Source of the DNA: an uncultured Bacillales bacterium | GTDB taxonomy: Bacteria; Bacillota_I; Bacilli_A; RFN20; CAG-288 | Reading direction: 5' to 3' | Length of the DNA stretch: 64,000 bases | Assembly: GCA_949287425.1 (NCBI GenBank) | Contig: CASEGJ010000003.1 | Location: 8,993-72,992 of the forward strand | Shown: positions 1 to 61,778 of the stretch, piece after piece | How positions within the stretch are numbered: position 1 is the first letter of the stretch | Layout of the letters: every line of letters starts with the position of its first letter | The notes under the pieces: generated by a model | Database searches by the model: none | Seen by the model: only the letters and a program-made list of their open reading frames with translations | Told to the model about the DNA's origin: nothing | Translations under genes and position numbers: made by a program

Positions 1-90
1 TTATCTAGCGCAGCTCAATATAAAATGAGTGATAGAATAAGATAAGCTCTTCCATTCACTTTATAGTCTTAGTTATGAAAGGAATTAATT

Positions 91-306
91 ATGAAAAAAG
101 TTCACGCTGTATTGACAATCTACGATTATTTATTAAACAAAAAATCGTTCAAGACTAGAGACATCGAACAATTAACCGGTTGCTCTAATAGAACTTGTGT
201 TCGTTATATCAAAGATATAAGAACTTATTTAGAACAATCTGGTCAAAACGTTGCTTTAGTTTATTCTAAACAATTAAAGTCTTTCGTCTTAGCTGAAAAA
301 GAATAA
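91..306 (+). CDS. small hypothetical protein, possible HTH DNA-binding (DeoR/HTH_11-like N-terminal pattern)
   Basis: 71-aa ORF upstream of groES; basic, with a helix-turn-helix-like segment (TRDIEQLTGCSNRTCVRYIKDI); no recognisable family. Confidence 0.3.
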   Translation: MKKVHAVLTIYDYLLNKKSFKTRDIEQLTGCSNRTCVRYIKDIRTYLEQSGQNVALVYSKQLKSFVLAEKE

Positions 307-471
307 TCTTTATTAGTTTGCTTTTATAACTATCTTTAAGTAAATATCTATTTGATAATAAATCAACAACTAGGGATAAATAAGACCTATAAGCCTAAAA
401 TTAACAAAAAATAGATGGTTTTGTTTTATTTACCCCTTTTTTCATGCCTTCAAAATAAATTTTTTAACAAA

Positions 472-498
472 TTAGCACTCTTGTATTGACATTGCTAA
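472..498. promoter_or_regulatory. CIRCE-like HrcA operator (TTAGCACTC-N9-CATTGCTAA, right arm 2 mismatches) overlapping -35 TTGACA (487-492)
   Basis: Inverted repeat matching CIRCE consensus TTAGCACTC-N9-GAGTGCTAA directly upstream of groES-groEL. Confidence 0.5.
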
Positions 499-546
499 TT
501 TTTAAGATAGAATATGTATTGTAAGCAAAAAAAGGAGTTTAAAAAT

Positions 547-2462
<1,916 letters not shown>

Positions 2463-2990: not shown

Positions 2991-3611
2991 TTATTCTCCT
3001 TTATATACTTTTAATATTTCATCAAAACTAAGTTCTCCTAATCTAATTAATTTAATTTGATTTGGATTAGTAAAATCAACTATTGTCGATGGTTTACTTG
3101 GAATGTAAGCGTCGTCAATTATATATTCAATTTGTCCTTTAAATTGATTATATACTTCTTCAGGTTTTAATAAAGGTGGCATTGAAGAAAGATTAGCTGA
3201 AGGAACTAATAATGGTTTACCAACTCTAGAAATAAAATCTTGCAACTTAGAATTAGATGATATTCTTATACCTATTGAAGGACTATTTAAGCTAACTTGA
3301 TAAGGCAAATTCGCTTTAGGTTTTAATAACAAAGTTAATGGACCAGGTACAAATTGAGAAATAACCCTTTGAATTTTATCATCAATATAAGCAAATTTAT
3401 TAAAATCAAAATCTTTTCCACCCATTAAAGTAAACGGTTTATTAGGTGGCCTTTTTTTTATTTCAACTAGTTTTAAAAAAGCTCGATAATTATCATAAAC
3501 ACATCCTAAGCCATAAACTGTTTCAGTTGGAAAAGCGATTACTTGTCCATCTTGTAAAGCTTTAACCCCTAAAGAAGAAGAAAATTTAATAAATTTAGTT
3601 GAACATTCCAT
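2991..3611 (-). CDS. tsaC: L-threonylcarbamoyladenylate synthase (YrdC/TsaC family, t6A biosynthesis)
   Basis: 206 aa; TETVYGLG motif of the YrdC fold. Confidence 0.8.
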   Translation of the reverse strand: MECSTKFIKFSSSLGVKALQDGQVIAFPTETVYGLGCVYDNYRAFLKLVEIKKRPPNKPFTLMGGKDFDFNKFAYIDDKIQRVISQFVPGPLTLLLKPKANLPYQVSLNSPSIGIRISSNSKLQDFISRVGKPLLVPSANLSSMPPLLKPEEVYNQFKGQIEYIIDDAYIPSKPSTIVDFTNPNQIKLIRLGELSFDEILKVYKGE

Positions 3612-3733
3612 ACGTAAAAATTATATCACTAACATTTTAAATCGAATGTAAAATTCAAAGTAGCTTTTAAAATAAACTTAATACAAATTATGCTAAAATA
3701 ATTAATTAGAAAAGATACTATTATTTCTAAATT

Positions 3734-6700
3734 ATGTCAAAAGTTAAATTTAATGAAATTGTTTCATCTTTAAAAAGCGAATGTGAATCCTGTCCCTTTT
3801 TAAAAATGAATTTTTCTAACATCAATCAAATAGATATAATTACTAATTCACAAGGTCTATTTTTAGAAAATTTATTTAAAAACACCTCTTTTTCGTTTGT
3901 TAATTTTTTTGATACAAATACTAGTTTAAATGATGATGTAATTAAGTTTAATCAAATTGAAATTCAAAAGAAAGCTAAATATAACATCAACGAAATTGAA
4001 GAATTATTAAAAACTCAACCTTTAAAATATAACGAATTAACAACCACTCTACTTAGCAATCAACAAAGCAAACAATTAACCTCTTTATTAAATCAAGATG
4101 ATGTTTTTCTTACTTTTTTAAACCTTTATTATCAAAAAAAGGATTCTAAAACAATATATTCAACACCTTTGTTATTTTTTAAGGTCAAATTATTTTTCAA
4201 AGATAATTCGATAAACTTATCTTTAGACTATAATACCTATCTATTTAACAGCTTAATTATCAATCAATTAAAACGCGATTATAACATCGATTTAACATAT
4301 TCAAAATACACTTTTAATTTAGAAGAATATATTTTAGAAACGCAAAAGAAAATCAGCAATTTTCATTTTGGAATCGATTGTGTTTTTTCTTTAATTAAAT
4401 TTGATGTTTTTAAATATTTAAAACTCGATACCGTTTTAGAATATTTCGATTCCAACTATCATACTAGCAATGATGTTTTTTTACATTTAAATAATGAATT
4501 TACCCCTACAAATCTCACTTATAATTCAAAATCAACTCAACTTGATTTTGTTCAACAAGCCATCAATCAATTGCAAAACCATTCAATAATTCAAGTTGAT
4601 AAATTAAACAAATTTTCCACTCGTTTTATAAAAGAAACAATTAATGAACACATATTTAAGAAACAAAACGTTCTTTTTATAACACCTTCCAAAAATAAAG
4701 AAGATGAGCTAAGGAAAATGCTTATTCAAAATTATTATGATGGCTTTTTCTTGCCGGTTCACGTTTATGATCCAAATTTTTCTATCTTTTCTTTAATTAA
4801 AAATAGCAAAAATAAAACCAATTATATTCTCGATTCAAATTTAATCTACCAAAAACAAGAAGTTTCCGAACTAAACGATGAATTTCAGCATCTTTCCTCT
4901 GAATTATGTCAAATAGGAACATCATTACAAGAAGACGATTTTGAAATTTTCACACATTATTATTCAAACGCATGTCTAGCTAATCAAATTTTTGAATTTA
5001 GAACAGATCAAGAATATTCATTTAATAATTATTTGACAGATTTAGATTTTTTAAAATTTTTAAGCGAAAATAAATACTATGATACACATGGCATTTTAAA
5101 TAATAAATATCATTTAATTTCCAATTTACTTAACGATTATGAATATGATGATTTTATTAAATTTATTAAACAAACCCTGCAAGAATTTAACATTTTTTAT
5201 CAGCTTTTAGATCAATCACATATAAAAGAGTCAAATTTTTCTAATTTTACATTTATAAATCAAGTTCTAAAAATCATTAAAGAAATAAATATATTTACCG
5301 ATTTTAATTTTTTTAATCTCGATTATTTTAATTTCGATTTTTCAAAACAAAATTTAGATTATTCTAACCAATTAAAAGATTGTTATAGAACTCATGCTTC
5401 AATTCATTTAACTTTAGATATGGTGTGTAATCAAGATGTTTGGAAATTAAATTTTCAAGATGTTTTGAACTCTTTAAAAGATAAAAAGGCAGAGAAAGAA
5501 ACGCGTAAGATGTTTAGAAACATCATCAAAATATCCCCATTTAGCAAAACGTATAAATCCGTTTTAATCTTGCTTGATAAATATATCAAAAACGAGGAAT
5601 TAACTAACCAATTAAAAGAAAAGCTTTATCCTTATTTTAAAGATGAATGTTTAAGTTTAGATGGCTTATTAAACTTAGATAAAATTGCAAAATATATAGA
5701 TAGTTATAAACAATTTCAAGCCAATCACCCTGATTACGATTTTCACAGTGATTTTACAAAACAAGTTTTTACTAACAAATCTTATTTTGAAGAAATTAAA
5801 CTCGGTATTGAGAATTTACAAAAACAATTTCAAAAGATTCAAGAAAATTTAAACAAACTATTAATTATCTTACCTAATGATAGTTTTAACTATTTAAATT
5901 CCTCTTTTGAAGAAATAAACAAACACTTAAATAATTATCTAACTGGAACCAAAGAAGAATTTATAACAGCCTTAACCTTTAATAAGCTCTACAATAAAAC
6001 ATCGTATTTTATTAAACAAGCGATTCAACAATCTCCTGCTGAAAATTTAAATAATTTTTCTATAAACTTTCAAACCTCTATCAATCAATATGTACTATTG
6101 GATAACTTCAATCGTATCGGTGGAATTAAAACTCTAGAAACAGCCAATTCTATTTTAAATGAATTTTATACTAAAAATAATTCTGTAATTGAAAACTTAG
6201 ATTTAGATTTGATTAATTTCTTTAATAAAGCTAAAGATCAATTGATTAACTTACCTTCTTTTAATCAGACTTTAAGCCAACTAAAACGCGAATATCAAAA
6301 TGGTCAAATTTATTCCTTGTTTAGAAGTATAGATGTATCTGGGTATTTGCTTTATCACCTTAATCCTATTGAAATCATCAATATTTATTCTGCGATTTAT
6401 TTAAAAAACTATAAATTTAATTTAGCTATTGTTGATTTAGAACAAATCTCATTAGAAGATTTGCTGTTCTCATTTTTATTAGCAGACAAAGTTATTCTAA
6501 TTGGAAATTTAACTCATCAAATAGAAAATTGTATTCCACATTTTCAAGCGAGTTTATCAACCGATTTATCTATATATACATACTCTTTACCAAAAGAAGT
6601 GTTAAATAGAATTATTAATTGTTTTAATAGACATAACATCAAATTAGAATTAAATAAAAAGATAGACGATTTTACTATCGGTTATTATTTTGAAGTTAAC

Positions 6701-7300
6701 AACAATAAATTCGCTTTAAAAGTAGAAACATCTAAAGATATCTTAACTTTTAAAAATTGTAATTTAATTCCATCGTTTTTATATAATAATTATCAAATTA
6801 AAACAAAATATTTATATTTAATCCCATTTATCATTTATGAAGATTTATCTGTTCTTTTACTATATAACGAGATTGATTTTAATAAAAATCAAGAACTCGT
6901 TGAAAAGAAAAAATACGATTCATTAACATATGAACAAAAAAGAAGAGTTGATTACTTTTCAATGTTAGATAAAATCTCTCAATCTTTTAAAGAATATTCA
7001 CCTAATCAAGAAGAAAAGATAACAAAAATAACCCCTTTAAGAAGATCCAATTTAAAATTAAGAGCTGTTGAAACAATTTCTTATTTAGAAATCGCTGGTG
7101 GTATCTTAACCTTCCTTTCTAAATTTTCATATTTAAATAAACAAACTTTATTAAAAAGAATAGCGTTAGTAATTGGAACAACAGAAAAAGATATAAATTA
7201 TAATATTCTATTTAACAAAGCATGTTCTTTTTTAGAAGAAGAAAATTTAATTGAAGCAAAAGAAAACCGCTTATATTTAAAGCGGCAATCTAATATATAA
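3734..7300 (+). CDS. 1188-aa hypothetical protein with a degenerate SF1 (Upf1/DNA2-like) helicase core; no Walker A
   Basis: Long uninterrupted ORF. Segment AIVDLEQ-(N10)-ADKVILIGNLTHQI resembles helicase motif II (vIiDEAgQ) and motif III (vvLvGDhkQLpP) with catalytic residues replaced. No GxxxxGK[TS] anywhere. N/F/K-rich. Confidence 0.6.
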   Translation: MSKVKFNEIVSSLKSECESCPFLKMNFSNINQIDIITNSQGLFLENLFKNTSFSFVNFFDTNTSLNDDVIKFNQIEIQKKAKYNINEIEELLKTQPLKYNELTTTLLSNQQSKQLTSLLNQDDVFLTFLNLYYQKKDSKTIYSTPLLFFKVKLFFKDNSINLSLDYNTYLFNSLIINQLKRDYNIDLTYSKYTFNLEEYILETQKKISNFHFGIDCVFSLIKFDVFKYLKLDTVLEYFDSNYHTSNDVFLHLNNEFTPTNLTYNSKSTQLDFVQQAINQLQNHSIIQVDKLNKFSTRFIKETINEHIFKKQNVLFITPSKNKEDELRKMLIQNYYDGFFLPVHVYDPNFSIFSLIKNSKNKTNYILDSNLIYQKQEVSELNDEFQHLSSELCQIGTSLQEDDFEIFTHYYSNACLANQIFEFRTDQEYSFNNYLTDLDFLKFLSENKYYDTHGILNNKYHLISNLLNDYEYDDFIKFIKQTLQEFNIFYQLLDQSHIKESNFSNFTFINQVLKIIKEINIFTDFNFFNLDYFNFDFSKQNLDYSNQLKDCYRTHASIHLTLDMVCNQDVWKLNFQDVLNSLKDKKAEKETRKMFRNIIKISPFSKTYKSVLILLDKYIKNEELTNQLKEKLYPYFKDECLSLDGLLNLDKIAKYIDSYKQFQANHPDYDFHSDFTKQVFTNKSYFEEIKLGIENLQKQFQKIQENLNKLLIILPNDSFNYLNSSFEEINKHLNNYLTGTKEEFITALTFNKLYNKTSYFIKQAIQQSPAENLNNFSINFQTSINQYVLLDNFNRIGGIKTLETANSILNEFYTKNNSVIENLDLDLINFFNKAKDQLINLPSFNQTLSQLKREYQNGQIYSLFRSIDVSGYLLYHLNPIEIINIYSAIYLKNYKFNLAIVDLEQISLEDLLFSFLLADKVILIGNLTHQIENCIPHFQASLSTDLSIYTYSLPKEVLNRIINCFNRHNIKLELNKKIDDFTIGYYFEVNNNKFALKVETSKDILTFKNCNLIPSFLYNNYQIKTKYLYLIPFIIYEDLSVLLLYNEIDFNKNQELVEKKKYDSLTYEQKRRVDYFSMLDKISQSFKEYSPNQEEKITKITPLRRSNLKLRAVETISYLEIAGGILTFLSKFSYLNKQTLLKRIALVIGTTEKDINYNILFNKACSFLEEENLIEAKENRLYLKRQSNI

Positions 7301-7314
7301 ATTAATTTTAATAC

Positions 7315-7560
7315 TTATTTTTTACGTCTATTTTCAATATAGTCTAAATATTCTCTAGGATCTGCTTTATATTTTTTAATAATGCACATTATTAAATCTA
7401 AAATATTCCACAATTCACCAATAGCGCACATGTTAGAAATTAATTTTATTAAAAACAATTTCCATCCTGCAGATTTCATTACATAAAATTTATCAACACC
7501 TAACCAACCAAAGAACAATATTATTAGAAATAACCATATATCAAATTTTTCTTCTTCCAT
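7315..7560 (-). CDS. TM2-domain small membrane protein
   Basis: 81 aa; FGWLGVDKFY motif and two TM helices. Confidence 0.5.
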   Translation of the reverse strand: MEEEKFDIWLFLIILFFGWLGVDKFYVMKSAGWKLFLIKLISNMCAIGELWNILDLIMCIIKKYKADPREYLDYIENRRKK

Positions 7561-7679
7561 ATTAAACTCCTAACTTACTCAATTAATTATAAAGATGTTA
7601 AGCATTTTATTCAACATTTATTAGTTTCATCAAATCCGTTATTTGTTTTATACTTTATAAGTATATAAAGGAATAAATT

Positions 7680-8543
7680 ATGAATAATAAAACTTTAATT
7701 CAAAAAGACAATGATATTTCTCATATTATAGTTAAAAAATATCGCTTTAAACTTTGGAACCCGTTTATTAAAGCAATTAAACAATATCAATTAATTCAAC
7801 CAAACGATAGAATTTGTGTATGTATTTCCGGAGGAAAAGATTCTATGCTTATGGCAAAGCTTTTTTCAATACTTCATAAATACACTGAAATTCCATTTGA
7901 TGTTGAATATTTGGTAATGAATCCTGGTTATAATCCAAAAAATCTAGACTTAATTAAGTATAATTTAAATAAACTTGAAATCCCCGCTAAAATTGTAGAA
8001 ACAAACATCTTTGCTGTCGCTAATATGCAAACTCAATCACCTTGTTATTTATGTGCCAAGATGAGAAGAGGAGCGCTATATCGAATCGCTAAAGACGAAC
8101 TTAATTGTAACAAAATTGCACTTGGTCATCATTATGATGATGTAATTGAAACGACATTAATGAACATGTTAAATGCAGGAAGTTTTCAAACTATGCTACC
8201 TAAATTACATTCAGAGAATTATCCTGGTATGGAATTAATTAGACCATTATATTTACTTCGAGAAAAAGATATTATTCAATTTAAAAATTATTGTGAACTT
8301 GAATTTTTACAATGCGCCTGCAAATTTACCGAACAATCAACATATACTCCTGAAATTGTTGCTTCAATGCGCAAAAAGACAAAGGAGCTAATTAAAGAGC
8401 TTATGAAAAACTACTCTCCCACAGTAGATAAATGTATTTTTAGAGCTGCATGCAACGTAAATATGGATCTTGTTTTAGGATATAAAAAACATGGTAAAAT
8501 GCATACTTTTCTTGATGAATACAACGGACAAGAAGGCGAGTAG
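7680..8543 (+). CDS. ttcA: tRNA 2-thiocytidine(32) synthetase TtcA (PP-loop ATPase)
   Basis: SGGKDS PP-loop, CYLCAKMRRGALY and ALGHHYDD and CAC motifs matching TtcA rather than TilS. Confidence 0.8.
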   Translation: MNNKTLIQKDNDISHIIVKKYRFKLWNPFIKAIKQYQLIQPNDRICVCISGGKDSMLMAKLFSILHKYTEIPFDVEYLVMNPGYNPKNLDLIKYNLNKLEIPAKIVETNIFAVANMQTQSPCYLCAKMRRGALYRIAKDELNCNKIALGHHYDDVIETTLMNMLNAGSFQTMLPKLHSENYPGMELIRPLYLLREKDIIQFKNYCELEFLQCACKFTEQSTYTPEIVASMRKKTKELIKELMKNYSPTVDKCIFRAACNVNMDLVLGYKKHGKMHTFLDEYNGQEGE

Positions 8544-8904: not shown

Positions 8905-10182
8905 ATGTTAGATATAAAATTTATTAGAGAACATTTAGAAGAGGTTATTGAAAGACTTAACACTAGAAATGGCGATTATTCTTATTTAAGAGAAATTCCT
9001 AATTTAGACGCTAAAAGAAAAGAGCTCATTCAAAAAAGCGATGGTTTAAAAGCTGAAAGAAATGAAAAATCTAAACTTGTTGGCCAATATAAACGTGAAG
9101 GTAAAGACGCAAGTCAAATCATGCAAGCTATTACTAATTCCAAAGAGGAAATTGCTAAACTAGATAAAGAATTAGCAGAAATTGATGAAAAGATTAAACA
9201 AATACTATTAGCTACTCCTAATTTGCCAGATAAATCATTACCTATTGGGAAAGACGATACTTTTAATGAAGTGGTTTTTAAATGGGGTGAACCTAGACAA
9301 TTTGATTTTCCAATTCTCTCACATTGGGATTTAGGAGCTAAAAAAGGATATTTTGATCCTGAAAGAGCCGCTAAAGTAGCCGGTCCAAGATTCACTTTCT
9401 ATAAAGGTCCTTTTGCTAAACTAGAAAGAGCGGTCGCTAATTTCATGTTAGATACACATACTAAAAACGGATATACTGAAATTCTTCCTCCTTATTTAGT
9501 AAATACAGCTTCTTTTACAGGCACTGGTCAATTACCAAAATTTGCCAATCAAGCTTATCATGTCGATAATCAAACTGAAGGTGACTTCTGGATGATTCCA
9601 ACCGCTGAAGTTCCTGTTACTAACTATTTTAGAGAAGAAATTCTCGATGGAGATATCCTCCCTGTTAGATTTACAGCCTATTCTTCATGTTTTAGAGCTG
9701 AAGCTGGTGCGGCTGGAAGAGATACTCACGGATTAATTAGACAACATCAATTTCAAAAAGTTGAACTTGTAACATTTTGTAAACCTGAAGATTCTTTCAA
9801 AGAGCTTGAACATTTAACTAATGAAGCTGAAACAATTCTTCAACTATTAAAACTTCCTTATAGAAAAGTAGTATTATCTACTGGCGATGTCGGATTTAAT
9901 GCTGCAAAATGTTATGATTTAGAAGTTTGGCTACCTTCTTATAACGCCTATAAAGAAATCTCATCTTGTTCAAATGATACAGACTATCAAGCTAGAAGAA
10001 TGTCAATTAGATTCAAAAGAAGTAAAACTTCTCCAACTGAACTTGTTCATACTTTAAATGGATCAGGTCTAGCCGTTGGAAGAACTGTAGCCGCTATTAT
10101 TGAAAACTATCAAAATGCTGATGGTAGTATTACAATTCCTGATGTTTTAGTCCCATATATGGGTTGTAAAGTTATAGAATAA
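8905..10182 (+). CDS. serS: seryl-tRNA synthetase
   Basis: 425 aa; N-terminal coiled coil, class II motifs (FRxE, GLxRQHQFxKVE, GSGLAVGR). Confidence 0.95.
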   Translation: MLDIKFIREHLEEVIERLNTRNGDYSYLREIPNLDAKRKELIQKSDGLKAERNEKSKLVGQYKREGKDASQIMQAITNSKEEIAKLDKELAEIDEKIKQILLATPNLPDKSLPIGKDDTFNEVVFKWGEPRQFDFPILSHWDLGAKKGYFDPERAAKVAGPRFTFYKGPFAKLERAVANFMLDTHTKNGYTEILPPYLVNTASFTGTGQLPKFANQAYHVDNQTEGDFWMIPTAEVPVTNYFREEILDGDILPVRFTAYSSCFRAEAGAAGRDTHGLIRQHQFQKVELVTFCKPEDSFKELEHLTNEAETILQLLKLPYRKVVLSTGDVGFNAAKCYDLEVWLPSYNAYKEISSCSNDTDYQARRMSIRFKRSKTSPTELVHTLNGSGLAVGRTVAAIIENYQNADGSITIPDVLVPYMGCKVIE

Positions 10183-10186
10183 TTGA

Positions 10187-10221
10187 AAAGCTGCTTGATT
10201 TAAATCAGGCAGCTTATTTTT
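10187..10221. terminator. bidirectional terminator between serS (+) and XRE regulator (-)
   Basis: AAGCTGCTTGATTTAAATCAGGCAGCTT long hairpin plus T-run. Confidence 0.5.
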
Positions 10222-10537
10222 CATCATGGCTCAATTTTATATACTCTTCAATTTCAACTATTATATTTTTCATGTGTCTTTGTAACATTTGCTGTCTTTT
10301 TTTGTTTTCACTATTAGAAACCATCTTTCTAATTTGGCTTCTTCCAATTAAGTAATCCAAACTAACATCGAACAAATCAGCAATTTTACATAATTTATCA
10401 ACACTAGGTATACATACCCCATTTTCCCAGTTAGAATATGTTGAAACTTTGACCCCTAAATTAAAAGCGACTTCTTTTTGACAAAGATTTTTTTCTTCTC
10501 TTAAATCACACAATATCTTTGAAAAAGCTGTTTTCAT
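10214..10537 (-). CDS. XRE-family helix-turn-helix transcriptional regulator (probable start ATG at 10537)
   Basis: LCQKEVAFNLGVKVSTYSNWENG HTH_3 pattern. Confidence 0.7.
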   Translation of the reverse strand: MKTAFSKILCDLREEKNLCQKEVAFNLGVKVSTYSNWENGVCIPSVDKLCKIADLFDVSLDYLIGRSQIRKMVSNSENKKRQQMLQRHMKNIIVEIEEYIKLSHDEK

Positions 10538-10628
10538 ATAAATTATTAAACAACAAAACATAACAACTTTTCGTTATTTAACAATTTAATTGTAAAATTA
10601 GCGTTTTATTACAACTACGTTGTATTTT

Positions 10629-11501
10629 TTATAATTCTGAATCATCATTTTTAAGAATTGTTTTATACATGTTAGGTCTTCTATCTCTATAGATTCCCCA
10701 ATTTCTTCTATATTCAGCAATTTTATCTAAATCAAAAGAATGTATTAAGATTTCTTCTTTATCTTTTGAAGCTTGTTCAACAACATTTCCTGCTTCATCT
10801 GCTATAAAAGAATTTCCGAAAAAAGTCATTGATGAATTAATATCATCTTCTTTGCCGATTCTATTAGAAGCAACAACAGGCATAATATTTAATGCTGCTT
10901 GCCCAACCATAGCATTTTGCCAGTGCTTTGAAGTGTCAATCGGTAAAATTGGTTCACTTCCAATAGCGGTTGGAAACATCAAATATTCCGCCCCTTTTAA
11001 CGCTAATGATCTCCCGACTTCTAAAAACCACTGATCCCAGCAAATAGCAATGCCTAAATTACCATATTTAGTTTTAAAAACTTTAAAACCAGTATCTCCT
11101 GGCGTAAAATAAAACTTTTCTTCATAGCATTGTCCAGTTGGAATATGAGTTTTTCTATATAGACCTAAATCAGTACCATCAGCATCAATTACAGCAATTG
11201 AATTAAAGTAACAATTACCTGATTTTTCAAAAAATGAAATAGGTAAAACAACATTATATTTTTTCGCAATTTGCTTAAAATGAGCTAAAGTCTTACTATT
11301 TTTATATTCTTCTGCATAATCAAAACGAGAATAATCTTCAATTTGACAAAAATATTTTCTTTCAAATAATTCTTGTAACAAAATAACATTAGCTCCTTGT
11401 TTACTAGCTTGAGCAATTAATTTATCTGCCTTAGCTATATTTTCTTCATAATTAGAACTACATTGCATTTGCGTTGCGGCTAAATTTACTATTCTTGACA
11501 T
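10629..11501 (-). CDS. aguB: N-carbamoylputrescine amidase (nitrilase/CN-hydrolase superfamily)
   Basis: 290 aa; E-K-C triad context (ICWDQWF), adjacent to agmatine deiminase. Confidence 0.8.
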   Translation of the reverse strand: MSRIVNLAATQMQCSSNYEENIAKADKLIAQASKQGANVILLQELFERKYFCQIEDYSRFDYAEEYKNSKTLAHFKQIAKKYNVVLPISFFEKSGNCYFNSIAVIDADGTDLGLYRKTHIPTGQCYEEKFYFTPGDTGFKVFKTKYGNLGIAICWDQWFLEVGRSLALKGAEYLMFPTAIGSEPILPIDTSKHWQNAMVGQAALNIMPVVASNRIGKEDDINSSMTFFGNSFIADEAGNVVEQASKDKEEILIHSFDLDKIAEYRRNWGIYRDRRPNMYKTILKNDDSEL

Positions 11502-11512
11502 TTTTATCTCCT

Positions 11513-12592
11513 TTATATTTTATATTTTTTAGAATATGGTATTTGCTTAGTAATACAGTGGATATTTCCTCCACCTAACAAAATTTCTTTTGAATATATT
11601 TGAATAATCTCTTTTTTTCCTTTATAAAAATCATTCAATATAGAATAAGCAATTCTATCTTCTTCAACGTTAAATTTTGGAAGAATAATAAACTTATCAG
11701 ACATATAGAAATTTACATAACTTCCTGCTAATCTTCTTCCTTGTTTTCTATCAATAGACAAAGAATTTTTAATTAGGCCATCTTCTTCTGTTTTAGATAA
11801 ATACATATTTGATGGAACAGGAACTTTAATAACTTTATACCCGTAATCAATCAATTCTTTTTCATCGAGTAAAGACCTTTCATATTGAGGGTCATTTTTA
11901 TCTAAACACGTTGATAATAAAATCGTGCTTTCGTCTAAAAAACAAGCGATATTATCAACATGTCCACTAGTTTCATCGTTATATATACCATAAGTTAAAT
12001 AATCTACTTGATTAACGTTTAATGCTTTTTTTAATCTTTCAGTTATTTGATTTTGATTTAACATAGGATTTCTTCCTAAAGATAACAAACACTCTTTAGT
12101 AGTAAGTAATTTACCTTTTCCGTTTGAATGAATAGATCCACCTTCTAAAATAAAATCTTTATAAGCAATCCGAGGAATATTTAATTCTTTTAATAATTTT
12201 TGTCCAATTGAATTATCTTCTTGATAATTAGAATACAACCCATTGTAACTTCCACCCCAAGCGTTAAAGCCAAAATCAACACCAAGTAAATTATCTTCGT
12301 CATCTTTTAAAAAGACAGGTAAATTATCTCGAGCCCAAGCGTCGTTATATTCAATGTTTTTTAAAATAACATTATTTAATTGTTTGAGTTTTTCTAAATA
12401 TTGTTTATTTACTTTTTTAGAATAAATTACCAGTACTTTTTCATGTTTAGAGATCGCCTTTATTACATTAAAATATTCTTCTAAAGCAGGAAGAGAATGC
12501 TCTCTCCATGTATCTTCTCTAAAAGGAAGTAAAATACATGTTAAAAGGTGTTTTTCTCCTTCAAAAGGAAAATAATATCTTGAAATATCCAT
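11513..12592 (-). CDS. aguA: agmatine deiminase
   Basis: 359 aa; WARD and C-terminal GGGNIHCITKQ catalytic-Cys motif of the agmatine/porphyromonas-type deiminase family. Confidence 0.85.
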   Translation of the reverse strand: MDISRYYFPFEGEKHLLTCILLPFREDTWREHSLPALEEYFNVIKAISKHEKVLVIYSKKVNKQYLEKLKQLNNVILKNIEYNDAWARDNLPVFLKDDEDNLLGVDFGFNAWGGSYNGLYSNYQEDNSIGQKLLKELNIPRIAYKDFILEGGSIHSNGKGKLLTTKECLLSLGRNPMLNQNQITERLKKALNVNQVDYLTYGIYNDETSGHVDNIACFLDESTILLSTCLDKNDPQYERSLLDEKELIDYGYKVIKVPVPSNMYLSKTEEDGLIKNSLSIDRKQGRRLAGSYVNFYMSDKFIILPKFNVEEDRIAYSILNDFYKGKKEIIQIYSKEILLGGGNIHCITKQIPYSKKYKI

Positions 12593-24528: not shown

Positions 24529-26703
24529 TTAATCTGTTAAACTAGAAAATAAATTAATCACTAATCCATTAAGTGAATTGTATTCTTCTTGAGTTAAAAT
24601 TTTTCCTCCTAAAACTGCTTGTGTTATAGCTCCTTCTCCTTTATTGTTGTATTCGCTAAAATCAGCGTTTTGAGGTAAATTAGATGACATATCATCAAAT
24701 CTAGGATTCTTATTATCTACATTATCGTTATAGGCTTTTTTAGAAATAGAAGCATCCATATTACAATTAGCATATGTTATTTTCGATAAATTACCCCAAG
24801 GTCTAGCTAAAGAAACGGTTCCTGGAGTTACACCTTGTTCACCTACAATATTACAAGATTCAAAGAAGAAACCAACTTGAGGTTTAACTGATGGCTTACT
24901 TGTGCAAATATATCCTCCATTTGTCGAACTATTTCTATTTAAACAAGTAATATCACAGCTATTTAAATAAACATTAGAATCCTCACCAAAGATAAAATCT
25001 GTCATGCCTTGTATCTTGCATTGATAATACATTTGATTTCCTAATCTAGCGTATAAAGTATCTTGGAAACCGATAAAATTACAATTGTTAAATATTGCGT
25101 CATCATCAACAACAATAGCACAAGCTTGTTTATCTGAATTGGAATCAGAATTATATTCTTCCATTGATTTATATTTTGAATTTTCAAAAGTTATACCTGA
25201 AGCAGAGAAATTAGTTGCACCTTCAACAACTGTTACACTTGATGAACCATAAGTGGATACATTGTTATTATTTGCGTCTTTATCATAAGAGGCTAAATCG
25301 TAATTGATATTTACATTATTTGGATTATCAATATTACCGACTAAACTCACATTAGGAATTTCGATGTAGAGTTTTTCTTTATATGTTCCATCTGCAATTT
25401 CAATTACTTTTTTTGTTGAATCATCTAAATTACACGCTTTCAAGAAATCATGAGCATCTTGAATCTTGTTGAAGTTAATAATTTTATCTTTGTCAATAAA
25501 ACCATTTTGGCTAGAAGATGAAACTCTAACTTTATATTCTCCTTGACTATTTGGAGTTAATTTTGCTGGATCAATAACAGTTAATTTTATACTGCTAGTT
25601 TGACTTATCATACCTATCTTACCAGTTATAACAAGCTGTTTAGCCCCAGCTGAAGAAGTTTTTACTTCTGAAAAAGTCGGATTATCTAATTTCTTTTCAA
25701 AATCTCCATCTTTAGCTTTTACTATAATATTTGATGTATCAATTTGACTATTTAATATATATACTTTTGGAAAACGCAAAGCTTTTTTATTTGAAATAGT
25801 AAAATCAGAATAAACAGCTAATTCGCTAAATTGATGAATTGTTACTTCATATTGCTGAACTGAATAATCTTTATATTTAATAATTACAGGATAAGTTCCA
25901 GGTTCTGATTTAACATTAGATAAATCAATTTGATAATCTTTGCTATCGATATTTAACTTAGCACCATTATCATAATTAGCTTCAACAATTAATCCAGCTG
26001 TCGAAACTTCTTCTCCGACAAAATAATCTTTTTCAACAGTTTCAGTTTGAATAGAAAATCCAATTTCTTTTCCTAAATTGACATCTTCTTGTAAACCAGC
26101 ATAACAAATATGAATGTTATCTGAACCAGTATATTTATATACGCCAGGTTCAAGATTTAAATCATATTCAAAAATACTGCTAGAACCTTGTGGATTTGCT
26201 CTTGAATCAATAACAGCATTATTTTCATCAGTTAATATAAAATCACGAGAATTACTATTAGAAGGTTGAACAGCTAAATGCAATTTTGCGTTTTTTCCAG
26301 TAACAGTAATTTGTAAATATTGATTATTACTTTGTTTAAACGATTTAATTCTTCCTCCAGTATCTATTGTTTCTCCTTTTAAATTGGTTGCTTTTCTACT
26401 TCCAGATTCAAAAGTTAAACTTCCTTTACCTGCTAAAATTTTAAAAGTTGAATTTAATTCTTGATCTTGTGTTAAATCTAAATTTGCAACATCTTTAGCG
26501 ATTAATTCAGTTGTTTTTGTAACTAAATTTTCATCGATTGATGAACTTGATTCTGAAGATGATGAGTTCGACGATGTTATAGAGGTTGGACTTGAAGAAG
26601 TTGAAGAAATTGAACTAGATGAAATATTGCTAGTTTCACTATTACAAGCGACCAAACTAGCTAATAACAATGTTAGCGAAAATATTTTAAGACCTTTTTT
26701 CAT
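24529..26703 (-). CDS. surface lipoprotein with C-terminal pectin methylesterase (CE8) domain
   Basis: Lipobox LVAC, Ser-rich linker, beta-sandwich repeats. C-terminal has DGTYKEK (GxYxE), QACAIVV (QAVAL), GFQDTLY, GMTDFIFG and LARPWG (LGRPW) CE8 motifs. Confidence 0.75.
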   Translation of the reverse strand: MKKGLKIFSLTLLLASLVACNSETSNISSSSISSTSSSPTSITSSNSSSSESSSSIDENLVTKTTELIAKDVANLDLTQDQELNSTFKILAGKGSLTFESGSRKATNLKGETIDTGGRIKSFKQSNNQYLQITVTGKNAKLHLAVQPSNSNSRDFILTDENNAVIDSRANPQGSSSIFEYDLNLEPGVYKYTGSDNIHICYAGLQEDVNLGKEIGFSIQTETVEKDYFVGEEVSTAGLIVEANYDNGAKLNIDSKDYQIDLSNVKSEPGTYPVIIKYKDYSVQQYEVTIHQFSELAVYSDFTISNKKALRFPKVYILNSQIDTSNIIVKAKDGDFEKKLDNPTFSEVKTSSAGAKQLVITGKIGMISQTSSIKLTVIDPAKLTPNSQGEYKVRVSSSSQNGFIDKDKIINFNKIQDAHDFLKACNLDDSTKKVIEIADGTYKEKLYIEIPNVSLVGNIDNPNNVNINYDLASYDKDANNNNVSTYGSSSVTVVEGATNFSASGITFENSKYKSMEEYNSDSNSDKQACAIVVDDDAIFNNCNFIGFQDTLYARLGNQMYYQCKIQGMTDFIFGEDSNVYLNSCDITCLNRNSSTNGGYICTSKPSVKPQVGFFFESCNIVGEQGVTPGTVSLARPWGNLSKITYANCNMDASISKKAYNDNVDNKNPRFDDMSSNLPQNADFSEYNNKGEGAITQAVLGGKILTQEEYNSLNGLVINLFSSLTD

Positions 26704-39168: not shown

Positions 39169-40281
39169 ATGAAATTAACGTTAAAAAGAGCTCCATTTGA
39201 AAAAATTTTAACTACATTAAGCGAAGTCATTCCTTCTCAAACAGCTGATGCTAATTTAAAGAATTTTTTAATCGATGTTTCTGAAGATGGTTTTAAGATT
39301 TTAGGTTCAGATGGAACTTTATCAATAGAAACTTTTATTTCAAACAAAGGTGATTCAATTATAATTAACTTAAACCCAGGTTCAGTTCAAATACCAGCTA
39401 GTTTATTTTTATCTGCTATAAAAAGATTATCTAATGAAATTGTAAGTTTAGAACTTGTCGATGAATCGTTATTATATTTAACTGATGAATTAACTCAATA
39501 TCAATTAAAAGTTATACCTGCTAATGAATATCCTAATATTTCGATGGAATGTTCTTTAGATGAATCTATAACTATTAAGATGTCTGATTTTGAAAGACTA
39601 TATCAAACTACTTATTTTGCTGTTGCTAATAAAGGGCCAAAAGAACTATTTTGTGGAATTAACATTTCAGCTAAAAATGATAAATTAACTTTTGTCGCTA
39701 CTGATTCATATCGTCTTGCAAGAAAATATATCGATTTAGATAAGGAACATTATTTTTCTATAACAGTTCCTTCTAAAGCTTTAACTTTAGTTTCTCATAT
39801 AACTTCTTATCAAGAAGTCAGTATGTATTTAGATACTAATAAAGTGTTATTTAAAGTTGGTCCTTATACTGTTTCAAGCAAACTTATTCCTGGTGAATTC
39901 CCTAATATCGATAAAATTATTCCTACCAATATCACATATAAATTAGATGTTAATTCAAAAGAATTTATTCAAGCCGTTGATAATATAACTATCGTTGGTA
40001 ACTCTAGAATTCAAGTTACTTGTGGCCCTGATATAATTCAATTAGCTTCTAAAGATCAAAATGTCGGTTCTTCTATGATGCCGTTAAAAGATGCTCATTT
40101 TGAAGGTGATGATAGATTTAGCATCATTTTTAAATCTAATTTTGCAATAGACGCAATTAAAGCTTTAGATTCTGAAAGAGTCTGTTTGGAATTCGTTTCT
40201 GATTCAAGAGCGTTTTTAATTACTAGTGAAGATAAATCAATAACTCAAGTAATTACACCAATTAGAACTTTATCTGAATAA
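39169..40281 (+). CDS. dnaN: DNA polymerase III beta sliding clamp
   Basis: 370 aa, three-domain clamp; position after dnaA. Confidence 0.9.
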   Translation: MKLTLKRAPFEKILTTLSEVIPSQTADANLKNFLIDVSEDGFKILGSDGTLSIETFISNKGDSIIINLNPGSVQIPASLFLSAIKRLSNEIVSLELVDESLLYLTDELTQYQLKVIPANEYPNISMECSLDESITIKMSDFERLYQTTYFAVANKGPKELFCGINISAKNDKLTFVATDSYRLARKYIDLDKEHYFSITVPSKALTLVSHITSYQEVSMYLDTNKVLFKVGPYTVSSKLIPGEFPNIDKIIPTNITYKLDVNSKEFIQAVDNITIVGNSRIQVTCGPDIIQLASKDQNVGSSMMPLKDAHFEGDDRFSIIFKSNFAIDAIKALDSERVCLEFVSDSRAFLITSEDKSITQVITPIRTLSE

Positions 40282-41145: not shown

Positions 41146-42224
41146 TAAAAAAACTAGATCTATATCAGTTTAGAAATTATTCTGAGCTTCATATAGAATT
41201 TAAAGATAAGATTAACTTTGTTATAGGACCTAATGCGTGTGGTAAAACAAATTTAATTGAAGCTATTTATTATTTATGTTTAACAAGATCTTTTAAAAAA
41301 GCAGAAGATAAAGATTTAATTCAATTTAATAAACAAATAGCTCAAATTAGACTTCAATATCAATTGGAAGATGAAATTGTTCACGAATTAGGAGTCGATA
41401 TTACCAAAAAAGGAAAGTTAGTATATTTTGATAACGAGAAGCAAAAATCAGTTGCTAAAATTGTTTCTAAATTGCTAGCTATCGCTTATTCTCCTTTCTC
41501 TGTTAACTTATTCAAGTTAGAACCATCAGAAAGAAGAAAGTTTATGGATCAATCTATCTCTCTTATTTCAAAAGATTACTTAGAACAATTATTGCAATTT
41601 AGAAAGATACTAAAACAAAGGAATATGGCTTTAGTTAATCAAGACGAGATTGTAATTGAATTGTTAACTAAAGATTTGATTGATATTTCTTACCCTATAT
41701 TTATAGCTAGATATAATTTTGTAAAAAAAATATCTAAATATCTAGCTGAAATATACTATGTATTATTTGATACAAGCGAAAAATTAAATTTAAAATATTC
41801 GACTAGTTTACCTAATTATGAACAAGAAGGAGAATTTAAAAAAGCATATAAAGAAAGATTCGATACGATTAAATCAGAGGAAAGAAAAAAACAAGTAACA
41901 TTGATAGGATTGCAAAAAGATGACTTAATTGCTTATTTAGATAACAAACAAGTTTATTCTTATTGTTCTCAAGGTCAAAATAGATTAGTAGTTCTCGCTT
42001 TGCATTTAAGTTTATATGAAGTTTTATATGAAAGGTATAAGACTAAGCCAATATTATTACTTGATGATGTTCTTTCTGATTTAGATGAAAAAAGAAAAGA
42101 AAGACTAATTGATTATTTATCTAAATTAGGACAAGTATTTATTACTACTAGTGAAGAAATTAAAAATAAAGAAAAATACAATGTTATAAACGTTAAAGAT
42201 ATATCTAAAGGAGGAGTAAATTAA
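41139..42224 (+). CDS. recF: DNA replication and repair protein RecF
   Basis: GPNACGKTNL Walker A; SMC-like signature and Walker B (LLLDDVLSDLD). Confidence 0.9.
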   Translation: MLVKKLDLYQFRNYSELHIEFKDKINFVIGPNACGKTNLIEAIYYLCLTRSFKKAEDKDLIQFNKQIAQIRLQYQLEDEIVHELGVDITKKGKLVYFDNEKQKSVAKIVSKLLAIAYSPFSVNLFKLEPSERRKFMDQSISLISKDYLEQLLQFRKILKQRNMALVNQDEIVIELLTKDLIDISYPIFIARYNFVKKISKYLAEIYYVLFDTSEKLNLKYSTSLPNYEQEGEFKKAYKERFDTIKSEERKKQVTLIGLQKDDLIAYLDNKQVYSYCSQGQNRLVVLALHLSLYEVLYERYKTKPILLLDDVLSDLDEKRKERLIDYLSKLGQVFITTSEEIKNKEKYNVINVKDISKGGVN

Positions 42225-44245
42225 TGTTAGAAGAAAAACAAATTGAAACCGAAGAAAAAGTTAACGATGATGAAGAAGTAAAATTTGAAAAAATCGATGA
42301 AGAAACTGAACGTGAACAAGAAAGAGGTAAAAAAGATTATTCAGGTAAAGATATTCAAGTTTTAAAAGGTCTTGAACCGGTTAGAGAAAGACCTGGCATG
42401 TATATAGGTACAACATCTTCTAGAGGTTTACACCATTTAATTAGAGAAATTGTCGATAATGCTGTAGATGAAGCTTTAGCTGGATATTGTCATAATATTT
42501 TTGTTAGCTTAGAAAAAGATGGTTCAGTCACTGTTTCTGACGATGGTAGAGGTATACCTGTTGATGTGGTTTCCGATACAGGATTATCTGGTGTTGAAAC
42601 AGTTTATACAGTTTTACACGCTGGTGGTAAATTTGAAGGAAGTGAAGGTTATAAAGTTTCAGGTGGTCTTCATGGTGTTGGCGCTAGTGTAGTAAATGCA
42701 TTATCTACTCAAGTTAACGTTAAAGTTTTTAAAAATGGTCAAATTTATGAAATTCAATTTTTAAATGGAGGACACACTCAAGAACCTGGACTTCATGTTG
42801 TAGGAAATTGTGATCCTAGTAAAACAGGAACAACAGTTAACTTTACCCCAGATCCAAGCATATTTAAAGAAACAGTTACTTTCAATTATTTAGAAGTAAA
42901 AGAATATTTAAGACAAACGGCTTATTTAAATAAAGGGTTAAGTTTAACTTTGACTGATAATAGAGAAGAAGAAATTAAACAAGAAAATTTCTGTTATCAA
43001 GGTGGGATTTCTGAATACGTAGCTTATTTAAATATAGGTAGAACTCCTGTTTTTGATAATATTTTATATTTCGACGGAAAATCTGAAAGTGTTTTTGTTG
43101 AAGCGGCATTTCAGCCTACAAAAGCTTCTTCTAGTATTGTAAGAAGTTTTTGTAATAACATTATGACAGCTGGTGGAGGAACTCATGAAGAAGGTTTTAG
43201 ATTAGCTATAGTTCGTGAATTAAACCGCTATTTTAAATTTAAAGGTTGGAGAAAAGAAAACGAAGATAATTTCACCGCTGATGATATTTATGAAGGTTTA
43301 ACATGCACAATTTCAGTTAAACACCCTGATCCTCAATATGAAGGACAAGTTAAAGATAAATTAGGAAATGCTGAAGTTAGAAAGATAACTTCTTCTATCG
43401 TTGGAAATCAACTTAGAGATTTTTTGGAACAAAATCCTAAATTAGGAAGATTGTATTATGAAAGAGTTTTAACTGCTTGCAAAGGTAGATTAGCAGCTGA
43501 AAGAGCTAGAAATCAAGTAATTGGTAAATCTGGAGTTGGAGGTAATTTACCTGATAAATTAGCAGATTGTGTTTCTAAAAATCCAGAAGAAAGAGAATTG
43601 TTTATCGTTGAAGGTAATTCCGCTGGAGGTTCAGCTAAAAATGGTAGAGATGCTTTTACCCAAGCAATATTACCTTTAAGAGGTAAGATTTTAAATATTG
43701 AAAAAGCCGCTGATACAAGAATTGAAAAGAATGCGGAAATTGAAAATATGATAAACGCAATCGGCGCTGGATTTGGCTCTCAATTTGATATTACTAAAGC
43801 TAAATATCACAAAGTTATTATTATGACTGATGCTGATGTTGATGGTTCTCATATTCGTATTTTACTTCTAACTTTCTTCTATAGATTTATGAAGCCTCTT
43901 ATTGAAAATGGATATGTTTATATCGCTCAGCCACCTTTATATAAATTGACATATCAAGGACATGATTATTATTGTTTTAAAGAAGAAGAATTGCCTATTT
44001 TGAAATCTAAGCTACCTCAAAACGCGAGATTTTCTTTACAAAGATATAAAGGTTTAGGTGAAATGGATCCTTCTCAATTAGCGGAAACAACAATGGACAA
44101 AGATAAAAGATTAATGTGGAAAGTTACAATTCAAGATGCTGAAGAAGCCGAATTAGCTTTAACTGATTTAATGGGTGATAATGTTCAACCAAGAAAAGAA
44201 TTTATTACCGCAAACGCTAAATTTGTTAAAAATCTCGATATTTAA
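42224..44245 (+). CDS. gyrB: DNA gyrase subunit B
   Basis: 673 aa; GHKL ATPase, Toprim (EGNSAGGSAK), PLRGKILN motifs. Confidence 0.97.
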   Translation: MLEEKQIETEEKVNDDEEVKFEKIDEETEREQERGKKDYSGKDIQVLKGLEPVRERPGMYIGTTSSRGLHHLIREIVDNAVDEALAGYCHNIFVSLEKDGSVTVSDDGRGIPVDVVSDTGLSGVETVYTVLHAGGKFEGSEGYKVSGGLHGVGASVVNALSTQVNVKVFKNGQIYEIQFLNGGHTQEPGLHVVGNCDPSKTGTTVNFTPDPSIFKETVTFNYLEVKEYLRQTAYLNKGLSLTLTDNREEEIKQENFCYQGGISEYVAYLNIGRTPVFDNILYFDGKSESVFVEAAFQPTKASSSIVRSFCNNIMTAGGGTHEEGFRLAIVRELNRYFKFKGWRKENEDNFTADDIYEGLTCTISVKHPDPQYEGQVKDKLGNAEVRKITSSIVGNQLRDFLEQNPKLGRLYYERVLTACKGRLAAERARNQVIGKSGVGGNLPDKLADCVSKNPEERELFIVEGNSAGGSAKNGRDAFTQAILPLRGKILNIEKAADTRIEKNAEIENMINAIGAGFGSQFDITKAKYHKVIIMTDADVDGSHIRILLLTFFYRFMKPLIENGYVYIAQPPLYKLTYQGHDYYCFKEEELPILKSKLPQNARFSLQRYKGLGEMDPSQLAETTMDKDKRLMWKVTIQDAEEAELALTDLMGDNVQPRKEFITANAKFVKNLDI

Positions 44246-61499: not shown

Positions 61500-61575
61500 T
61501 GGTGGATTAGACAGGACTCGAACCTGTAACGACCCGCTTATGAGACGGGGACTCTAACCATTGAGCTACTAATCC
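61500..61575 (-). tRNA. tRNA with anticodon CAU (elongator Met or lysidine-modified Ile2); encoded CCA
   Basis: GGATTAG acceptor/CTAATCC, D arm GCTC..GAGT, anticodon loop CUCAUAA, T arm ACAGG-TTCGAGT-CCTGT; G1-C72 so not initiator. Confidence 0.85.
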
Positions 61576-61578
61576 GAA

Positions 61579-61654
61579 TGGTAGCTGCGGGGAGGATCGA
61601 ACTCTCGACATATCGGGTATGAACCGACTGCTCTACCAACTGAGCTACGCAGCC
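61579..61654 (-). tRNA. second tRNA-CAU (Met or Ile2), encoded CCA; A50.C64 mismatch in T stem and G1.U72
   Basis: GGCTGCG acceptor, anticodon stem GTCGG/CCGAT, loop UUCAUAC, T loop TTCGATC. Confidence 0.8.
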
Positions 61655-61702
61655 ATAAATTGTTATATGTATTAAATATCGGATTGCCTTTTAAAAAAAA
61701 GC

Positions 61703-61778
61703 TGGTGGAGCTGACGAGGATCGAACTCGCTACCTCTTCCATGCCATGGAAGCGCTCTCCCAGGTGAGCTACAGCCCC
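61703..61778 (-). tRNA. tRNA-Ala (anticodon GGC), encoded CCA
   Basis: GGGGCTG acceptor with G3.U70 identity pair, anticodon loop AUGGCAU, T arm GCGAG-TTCGATC-CTCGT. Confidence 0.85.

Follow-up and report, generated by a model that had tools for sequence, protein, structure and literature searches.

What kind of protein is encoded when the sequence recalls a superfamily 1 (SF1) helicase and the catalytic residues are gone? This question is raised by a large open reading frame (ORF) at positions 3734-7300 of the window, by which we mean the whole 64,000-nucleotide stretch analyzed here (contig CASEGJ010000003.1 of an uncultured Bacillales bacterium). The first-pass annotation gave the coordinates and the 1188-aa length of this ORF exactly, and read its product as a degenerate SF1 helicase core without ATPase activity. 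We found that the protein is helicase-derived and appears to be catalytically dead, but that only its first RecA lobe (RecA1) survives, so that it does not form a full core. We consider it likely that the protein is a catalytically inert, non-enzymatic structural descendant of the DUF4011 helicase-nucleases, coupled to a small TM2-like membrane protein encoded next to it. The composition (L 12.9%, N 10.9%, K 9.3%, I 9.1%, and F 8.2%) agrees with the earlier description of an N/F/K-rich protein.

With the single 1188-aa sequence as the query, neither Pfam nor NCBIfam gave a helicase match, and a search of the PDB found nothing. Therefore, the search for AAA_11, AAA_12, and DUF4011 that the first-pass annotation had proposed fails when made with this sequence, and the link appears only through homologs. 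The sole Pfam or NCBIfam match, PolB_N at aa 338-370, scored 19 bits against a cutoff of 27 and was taken as chance. An exhaustive phmmer search of 1.84 billion representative sequences identified 34 representative clusters, mostly of 1150-1250 aa, that align with the window protein from end to end at 15-42% identity. The family alignment and profile used below comprise 29 members, and the family includes members of high guanine-plus-cytosine (GC) content. Intact ORFs of about 1180 aa are also retained in AT-rich genomes, among members only 15-40% identical. The Pfam model DUF4011 (PF13195) matched 15 of the 29 aligned members with E<0.01, including a 40% identical, syntenic ortholog (P0002; 26.3 bits, gathering score 22.2), and did not match the window protein itself. 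The N-terminal domain of the latter is, on the evidence of these homologs, related to DUF4011 and too diverged for the curated model. The AAA_11 and AAA_12 models matched none of the 29 members, the window protein included, and the 29-member profile found no match among PDB sequences. We found no description of this dead-helicase family in the searchable literature.

The ancestry became visible in profile searches. The 29-sequence profile retrieved canonical proteins with the DUF4011, AAA_11, AAA_12, and REase_MTES_1575 domains at E 3e-19 to 5e-8, and a profile of the most distant subgroup alone retrieved further canonical proteins, some with DUF3320. In a direct comparison by hhalign, the family aligned with six canonical proteins over 1006 columns (99.8% probability, E 9e-30). 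At motif I (Walker A), this alignment sets NHSIIQVD-KLNKFSTRF of the window protein against the canonical GKSFVLQGPPGTGKSQT; at motif Ia, KKQNVLFITPSKN stands against GKKVLFVSEKLAA; and at motifs II and III, FNLAIVDL-EQ...ADKVILIGN stands against FDVVIFDEASQ...AKQLIVVGDS. The string VLFITPSKNK was considered as a decayed P-loop and rejected, because the alignment assigns it to motif Ia and places the P-loop position one strand earlier.

Slices of the family were also compared module by module with canonical slices by hhalign. The DUF4011 slice (aa 1-260; E 4e-18, score 124.9) and the helical insert (aa 345-860; E 6e-7, 340 columns, score 60.7) each matched on their own. In comparison with column-shuffled nulls, scores far above the shuffled maximum were obtained for the N-terminal half of RecA1 (aa 270-345; E 2e-8, 44 vs 13), the motif II/III strand pair (aa 860-940; E 2e-7, 35.9 vs 10.2), and the C-terminus (aa 1060-1188; E 2e-8, 54.2 vs 16.6). 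The distance from Walker A to motif II is also similar, about 611 aa in the window protein and 622 aa in the canonical proteins, and the insert that fills it is homologous to the insert of about 500 aa in canonical helicases, with an HPFYG/NPWYG motif common to both. By sequence, the canonical parents match IGHMBP2, Sen1, Upf1, SETX, Dna2, and ZNFX1, and are thus Upf1-like SF1B helicases. The Upf1/DNA2-like reading of motifs II and III that the first-pass annotation had proposed for the segment AIVDLEQISLEDLLFSFLLADKVILIGNLTHQI (aa 898-930, nt 6425-6523) is therefore correct. These comparisons indicate that the window protein descends from a DUF4011/Upf1-like SF1B helicase-nuclease.

Canonical DUF4011 SF1B helicase-nucleases, such as Mbov_0647 of Mycoplasma bovis, share about 1000 homologous columns with the window protein in the same order, namely DUF4011, RecA1 with an insert of about 500 aa, a Vsr-like fold, and a winged helix-turn-helix (wHTH). 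They differ in having kept the ATPase motifs, the second RecA lobe (RecA2), and the nuclease residues, and the window protein is 350-800 aa shorter. This order corresponds to the published MTES_1575-type architecture, in which an SF-I helicase is followed by a Vsr restriction endonuclease (REase) and a wHTH overlapping DUF3320 (PMC3710099).

An AlphaFold2 model of the full-length protein, built from the 29-sequence alignment, reached a mean predicted local distance difference test (pLDDT) score of 88.2, and a separate model of aa 936-1188 reached 86.2. In the full-length model, aa 285-332 form a strand-helix-strand-helix unit, and helix H907-915 joins strands E895-901 and E917-923 of the C-terminal half of RecA1. 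A Foldseek search of this model against the PDB gave compact matches to Upf1 (2xzo, prob 0.92), Sen1, SETX, and Dna2. These are structures that the canonical parents match by sequence, which supports the ancestry; the predicted RecA-like fold does not bear out the caution of the first-pass annotation that the motif resemblance might be due to chance. Against BFVD, one compact match was found, a phage 'Superfamily I DNA and RNA helicase' (prob 1.00, E 2e-3). Most prominent in the full-length searches were coiled-coil matches to SMC, MukB, JetC, dynein, and Rad50/SbcC, which were rejected as long-helix noise and not read as a sign of kinship with SMC proteins (template modelling (TM) score <= 0.1, root-mean-square deviation 35-90 A). 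Sequence profiles and model agree in pointing to a RecA1 lobe homologous to AAA_11.

The same agreement was found for two C-terminal domains that the first-pass annotation had overlooked. An alpha-beta-beta-beta-alpha-beta topology (aa 954-1028) is predicted in both AlphaFold2 models, and Foldseek with aa 936-1188 matched it to the catalytic domain of I-Bth0305I (3r3p; prob 0.97, TM score 0.54, E ~0.03), as well as to XisH and a splicing endonuclease. In addition, the region after motif III weakly matches the REase_MTES_1575 slice of the canonical proteins (hhalign E 0.006, 96 columns, score 20.7 vs a shuffled maximum of 10.5). Both lines suggest a restriction-endonuclease fold at aa 950-1045. 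For the C-terminal winged helix, Foldseek with the same fragment gave the cullin WHB, Hel308 WH, and CAP domains (prob up to 1.00, TM score 0.7-0.78), and a hidden Markov model of the family winged helix matches the last ~75 residues of canonical proteins (P0036, P0038, P0039, and P0042). Pfam DUF3320 did not match the window protein, and in canonical proteins this model covers another, upstream wHTH, not the terminal one. Model and profile together argue that the winged helix is homologous to the terminus of canonical DUF4011 helicases. Four family members of about 980 aa are without it. Distant subgroups (P0017-P0035) carry about 60 extra residues before it, with the consensus ...KDGFY..., which may correspond to the first wHTH of canonical proteins.

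What has been lost is seen most clearly at the ATP site. The Walker A pattern GxxxxGK[ST], the relaxed form [AG]xxxxGK[ST], and a bare GK[ST] are all absent from the 1188-aa protein. A six-frame scan of 3401-7500 also yielded zero Walker A motifs, so that a frame error is not concealing one, and the aligned positions lack both Walker A and hhhDE motifs in all 29 members. The absence of Walker A reported in the first-pass annotation thus holds, and no corrected frame overturns it. Motifs I, II, and III are absent in all 29 members, and their columns are not conserved: at motif I, D-KLNKFS is aligned to GPPGTGKS, and at motifs II and III, VDL-EQ and IGNL stand in columns that vary freely across the family. 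In the motif II/III segment, the family as a whole conserves the hydrophobic pattern but none of the catalytic residues (D, E, G-D, and Q). Of the individual replacements proposed earlier, that of QL by HQ cannot be assigned residue by residue from this alignment. A search with the profile of a distant subgroup for intermediates with an intact P-loop and no RecA2 found none. In one distant subgroup, the string D-x-R-[IL]-Q-G occurs just after the motif III strand and is possibly a GDxxQ remnant.

The loss extends to a whole lobe. A canonical RecA2 slice gave no match to the region after motif III (hhalign E 0.26), and only about 25 residues lie between the motif III strand and the nuclease-like domain. 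From motif III to the position of the nuclease ECDG motif, the window protein has about 75 aa and the canonical proteins have 317 aa; the shortfall of 242 aa is the size of RecA2, which indicates that the entire RecA2/AAA_12 lobe (~240 aa) has been deleted. A shrunken RecA2 at aa 940-1097 was considered and rejected on account of the same E-value and the nuclease topology of this region. In the nuclease-like domain, the Asp of the canonical fRIDL motif falls at IGYYF and the ECDG motif at VETS, in columns that are not conserved in the family; judging by this alignment, the nuclease active site has been lost. The ATP site of SF1 helicases sits between the two RecA lobes, with motifs IV-VI in RecA2. 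Since this site needs both lobes and RecA2 is missing, we infer that no ATP-driven motor remains, and the protein would be unable to bind or hydrolyze ATP, translocate, or cut DNA.

The gene is nevertheless under strong purifying selection. The ratio of nonsynonymous to synonymous substitution rates (dN/dS) was 0.064 between two loci of the family (L001 and L002) and about 0.03 between two others (L009 and L010), where dS is near saturation; values of 0.03-0.06 indicate that the gene is not a pseudogene. A comparison with a 99%-identical relative was uninformative, with 13 nucleotide differences. Mean conservation was highest in the winged helix, the C-terminal half of RecA1, and the helical insert, and lowest among the domains in the helical linker (aa 1046-1100). 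The eight most conserved of the 14 best 15-residue segments lie in the insert or the winged helix, with the top segments of the insert at aa 427-441, 457-471, 518-532, 551-565, 603-617, 641-655, and 667-681.

The first-pass annotation had placed the ORF between tsaC and ttcA. A tsaC gene is indeed found upstream, but ttcA is not the direct downstream flank, because an 81-aa TM2-like gene, which had been overlooked, intervenes. Its product scored 22.7 bits (E 1e-4) against Pfam TM2 (PF05154), for which the gathering score is 27.9. The alignment of 16 distinct homologs shows two hydrophobic helices and a GWLG.DKFY loop motif, within the fuller conserved pattern GWLG.DKFY...WK..K...GE.WN..D...kY..DPR[DE]YL, of which kY..DPR[DE]YL is a conserved charged tail. 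In its two transmembrane helices, short loop, and D-[KR]-F-Y-type motif, this subfamily resembles TM2 domain proteins; it differs from them in scoring below the gathering threshold and in having a charged tail of its own. We know of no function for bacterial TM2 proteins.

The loci come from a metagenome search that used the 13 closest sequences, and their count takes in the window and some duplicate contigs. Of the 22 loci besides L003, 21 have a TM2-like ORF of 68-92 aa downstream of the family gene, ~15 to 1000 bp from its stop codon. The sole exception (L007) holds less than 1 kb of downstream sequence. Another contig (L014) stops at the family gene and has just one TM2-like ORF, which matches weakly and lies upstream. 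The TM2-like gene thus adjoins the family gene in every testable locus, and it is the only constant neighbor, as the other flanking genes vary. In contrast, the one canonical-helicase locus examined (L003) has no TM2-like ORF. The TM2-like gene is on the same strand as the family gene in L005/L006 and L022, and elsewhere the two are usually convergent. In L005, from a high-GC host with a member ~16% identical to the window protein, the TM2-like ORF overlaps or abuts the large gene. A second recurring membrane-protein neighbor is a VTT/DedA-domain gene directly after the large gene in L004 (11795-12664) and L007 (5644-6582); in L004, it separates the large gene from the TM2-like one.

In the window, the stop codons of the large ORF and the convergent TM2-like gene are 14 nt apart. 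The only terminator-like site detected in 3500-7750 is a minus-strand hairpin with a T-run, likely the terminator of the TM2-like gene. Since this hairpin lies within the final codons of the large ORF, the transcripts of the two genes probably overlap at their 3' ends. The features of the window are listed in Table 1.

Table 1. Features of the large ORF, its flanks, and other parts of the window; residue numbers refer to the 1188-aa protein
Feature	Nucleotides	Residues	Strand	Remarks
Large ORF	3734..7300	1-1188	+	ATG start; putative inactivated DUF4011/SF1B helicase/Vsr-nuclease/wHTH descendant
DUF4011-like beta-rich N-domain	3734..4513	1-260	+	hhalign and model
RecA1, N-terminal half	4541..4768	270-345	+	predicted E285-288, H293-308, E313-317; former Walker A/motif Ia
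Decayed P-loop position, IIQVDKLNKFST	4586..4621	285-296	+	no glycines, no GK[ST]; aligned to GPPGTGKS
All-helical insert in RecA1 (~530 aa)	4769..6361	346-876	+	predicted helices H351-H876
RecA1, C-terminal half	6362..6523	877-930	+	predicted strands 879-883, E895-901, E917-923
Vsr-like PD-(D/E)XK nuclease fold relic	6581..6868	950-1045	+	predicted alpha-beta-beta-beta-alpha-beta
Helical linker	6869..7033	1046-1100	+	predicted H1049-1062, H1066-1083; pLDDT 57-76
C-terminal winged helix-turn-helix	7034..7285	1101-1184	+	IS..E..G and D.DFRLLF motifs; model 1117-1182
Terminator-like hairpin and T-run	7266..7286		-	inside last codons of large ORF
TsaC/Sua5-type threonylcarbamoyl-AMP synthase			-	upstream of large ORF; TIGR00057, above curated cutoff
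TM2-like two-pass membrane protein gene	7315..7560		-	81 aa; between large ORF and TtcA-like gene
TtcA-like gene	7680..8543			best NCBIfam match, below cutoff
Pectinesterase gene	24529-26703		-	724 aa; Big_3 domain
dnaA	37684-39045		+	
dnaN-sized ORF	39169-40281		+	dnaN by position alone
gyrB	42224-44245		+	
gyrA	44262-46955		+	
GH28 polygalacturonase gene	48043-49560		+	
Three-tRNA cluster	61503-61778		-	

As an inert structural descendant of this kind, the protein probably serves as a non-enzymatic scaffold or adaptor, by analogy with RecC and AddB. A ligand would then be bound by surfaces of the conserved helical insert and of the winged helix, and a functional, perhaps physical, coupling to the TM2 protein through the conserved charged tail of the latter could place the complex at the membrane. 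Several points weigh against this interpretation. The function of the family is read from sequence and predicted structure, and to our knowledge the parent DUF4011 helicases are functionally uncharacterized. The TM2 gene is usually convergent with the family gene and not co-transcribed with it, and their adjacency is linkage, not physical interaction. In addition, the protein is acidic, with a net charge of -14 in the insert and +5 in the winged helix; the overall charge speaks against extensive nucleic-acid binding or coating of DNA, although the winged helix is basic. With Foldseek E-values of only 0.002-0.1, the individual domains were assigned their folds from probability scores and topology, supported by the sequence profiles and the published architecture.

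A more specific and rather doubtful version of the same idea is a hitherto unrecognized two-gene module of small-genome, low-GC bacteria, in which a helicase-nuclease deprived of its enzymatic parts, a whole RecA lobe among them, would have become a membrane-tethered structural or sensing protein. This protein would dock on the kY..DPR[DE]YL tail of the TM2 protein while its insert and winged helix hold a macromolecular ligand. A candidate for this ligand is DNA kept at the membrane close to the origin region, in whose vicinity the gene lies in the window.

The alternative that survives best, unlikely as we judge it, is a RecC-like model. The protein would be the non-catalytic subunit of a complex and would contribute recognition or regulation, and the active helicase or nuclease of this complex, such as an intact DUF4011 paralog or a different SF1 enzyme, would be encoded elsewhere in the genome, the adjacency of TM2 being secondary. 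Inactivated SF1 helicase and/or nuclease folds act in this way, as scaffolds or recognition modules, in RecC of RecBCD and AddB of AddAB (PMC1185551, PMC3321194), and the window protein has likewise kept the domain order of its active relatives and a conserved insert. The likeness would be one of principle: the catalytic residues of an ancestral helicase-nuclease decayed, and selection kept its folds for a non-enzymatic role. However, RecC and AddB are of the SF1A type, have both RecA lobes, and belong to a known complex with an active partner, whereas the window protein is of the SF1B type, has one lobe, and has a membrane-protein neighbor; neither RecC nor AddB shows anything comparable to the loss of a whole RecA lobe. 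Moreover, no linked helicase or nuclease gene was found in any locus examined, the sole constant neighbor being the TM2-like gene.

An anti-phage or conflict system, with TM2 as the membrane effector and the dead helicase as the sensor, seems improbable. Defence systems commonly combine a sensor and a small membrane effector, and helicase-REase-wHTH architectures of the MTES_1575 type have been described in the context of conflict systems. Against this, PADLOC gave no meaningful match on the locus, and no family homologs were found in 72,556 plasmids and 50,697 phages. The gene is chromosomal and lies in a housekeeping neighborhood: groES-groEL-rpiB-tsaC are found upstream in the window (rpiB lying beyond tsaC) and in closer relatives, and rpmE, a pullulanase gene, or an ABC ATPase gene in distant members. 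Downstream, the loci carry ttcA, serS, pmbA/tldD, DUF3137-lemA, an aldehyde dehydrogenase gene, or a desulfoferrodoxin gene. The genes dnaA-dnaN-gyrB-gyrA at 37.7-47 kb show that the window spans the replication-origin region, about 30 kb from the large gene. The locus L002 (CAVHUN010000069.1), from the only GTDB species genome with an ortholog, encodes a protein of 40% identity in the same groEL-rpiB-tsaC-X-TM2 synteny. Together with dN/dS, synteny points to stable vertical inheritance, unlike the turnover of defence genes.

It is very improbable that the protein is still an NTPase or helicase acting through a non-canonical nucleotide site; RecA1 has retained its fold and the order of its strands near what were motifs I, Ia, II, and III, whereas at the aligned positions none of the 29 members has a glycine-rich loop, a conserved Lys/Thr, or a conserved acidic pair, and RecA2, half of the SF1 ATP site, is missing. 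Finally, a chance motif resemblance, a decaying pseudogene, or an AT-rich annotation artefact might be suspected from the strongly biased composition and the failure of the single sequence to match any helicase model, and is hardly credible in view of profile-profile homology far above shuffled controls, the high-GC members, the 34 clusters of full-length ORFs, the low dN/dS, and the confident AlphaFold2 model.

Pseudohelicases as such are known. PriA of Deinococcus radiodurans (PMC4504706) and yeast Utp25 (PMC9539457) have degenerate motifs and act in binding or scaffolding. They differ from the window protein in being SF2 proteins with both RecA lobes, no nuclease relic, and no membrane-protein partner. 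What is new here is the loss of a whole RecA lobe, the union of half a dead helicase and a dead Vsr-like nuclease in one protein, and the invariant TM2 neighbor. The family suggests that a single RecA lobe with its insert can persist under strong selection after the enzymatic parts are gone, and it points to a function of their own for the helical insert and the DUF4011 domain. DUF4011 helicases are widespread, being encoded by a core gene in Pseudomonas aeruginosa and by genes in Mycoplasma species, and a dead version could reveal what the DUF4011 and insert modules do without the motor. In addition, the invariant pairing offers a concrete lead on bacterial TM2 proteins.

Several further observations concern the surroundings of the gene. 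The region between the divergent tsaC and the large ORF (3612-3733) measures 122 nt; it contains promoter-like matches no more often than shuffled sequence does, and no obvious Shine-Dalgarno sequence precedes the ATG at 3734, a start codon backed only by the alignment of orthologs. In L001, a SLFN/AlbA_2-domain gene and an IS21-type element (IstB, rve transposase) lie beyond serS (9846-12558), and the window has neither at the equivalent place. The tRNA cluster comprises the only Rfam matches in the 64-kb window. With its pectinesterase and polygalacturonase genes, the organism appears able to degrade pectin, as would be expected of an inhabitant of a gut or digester.

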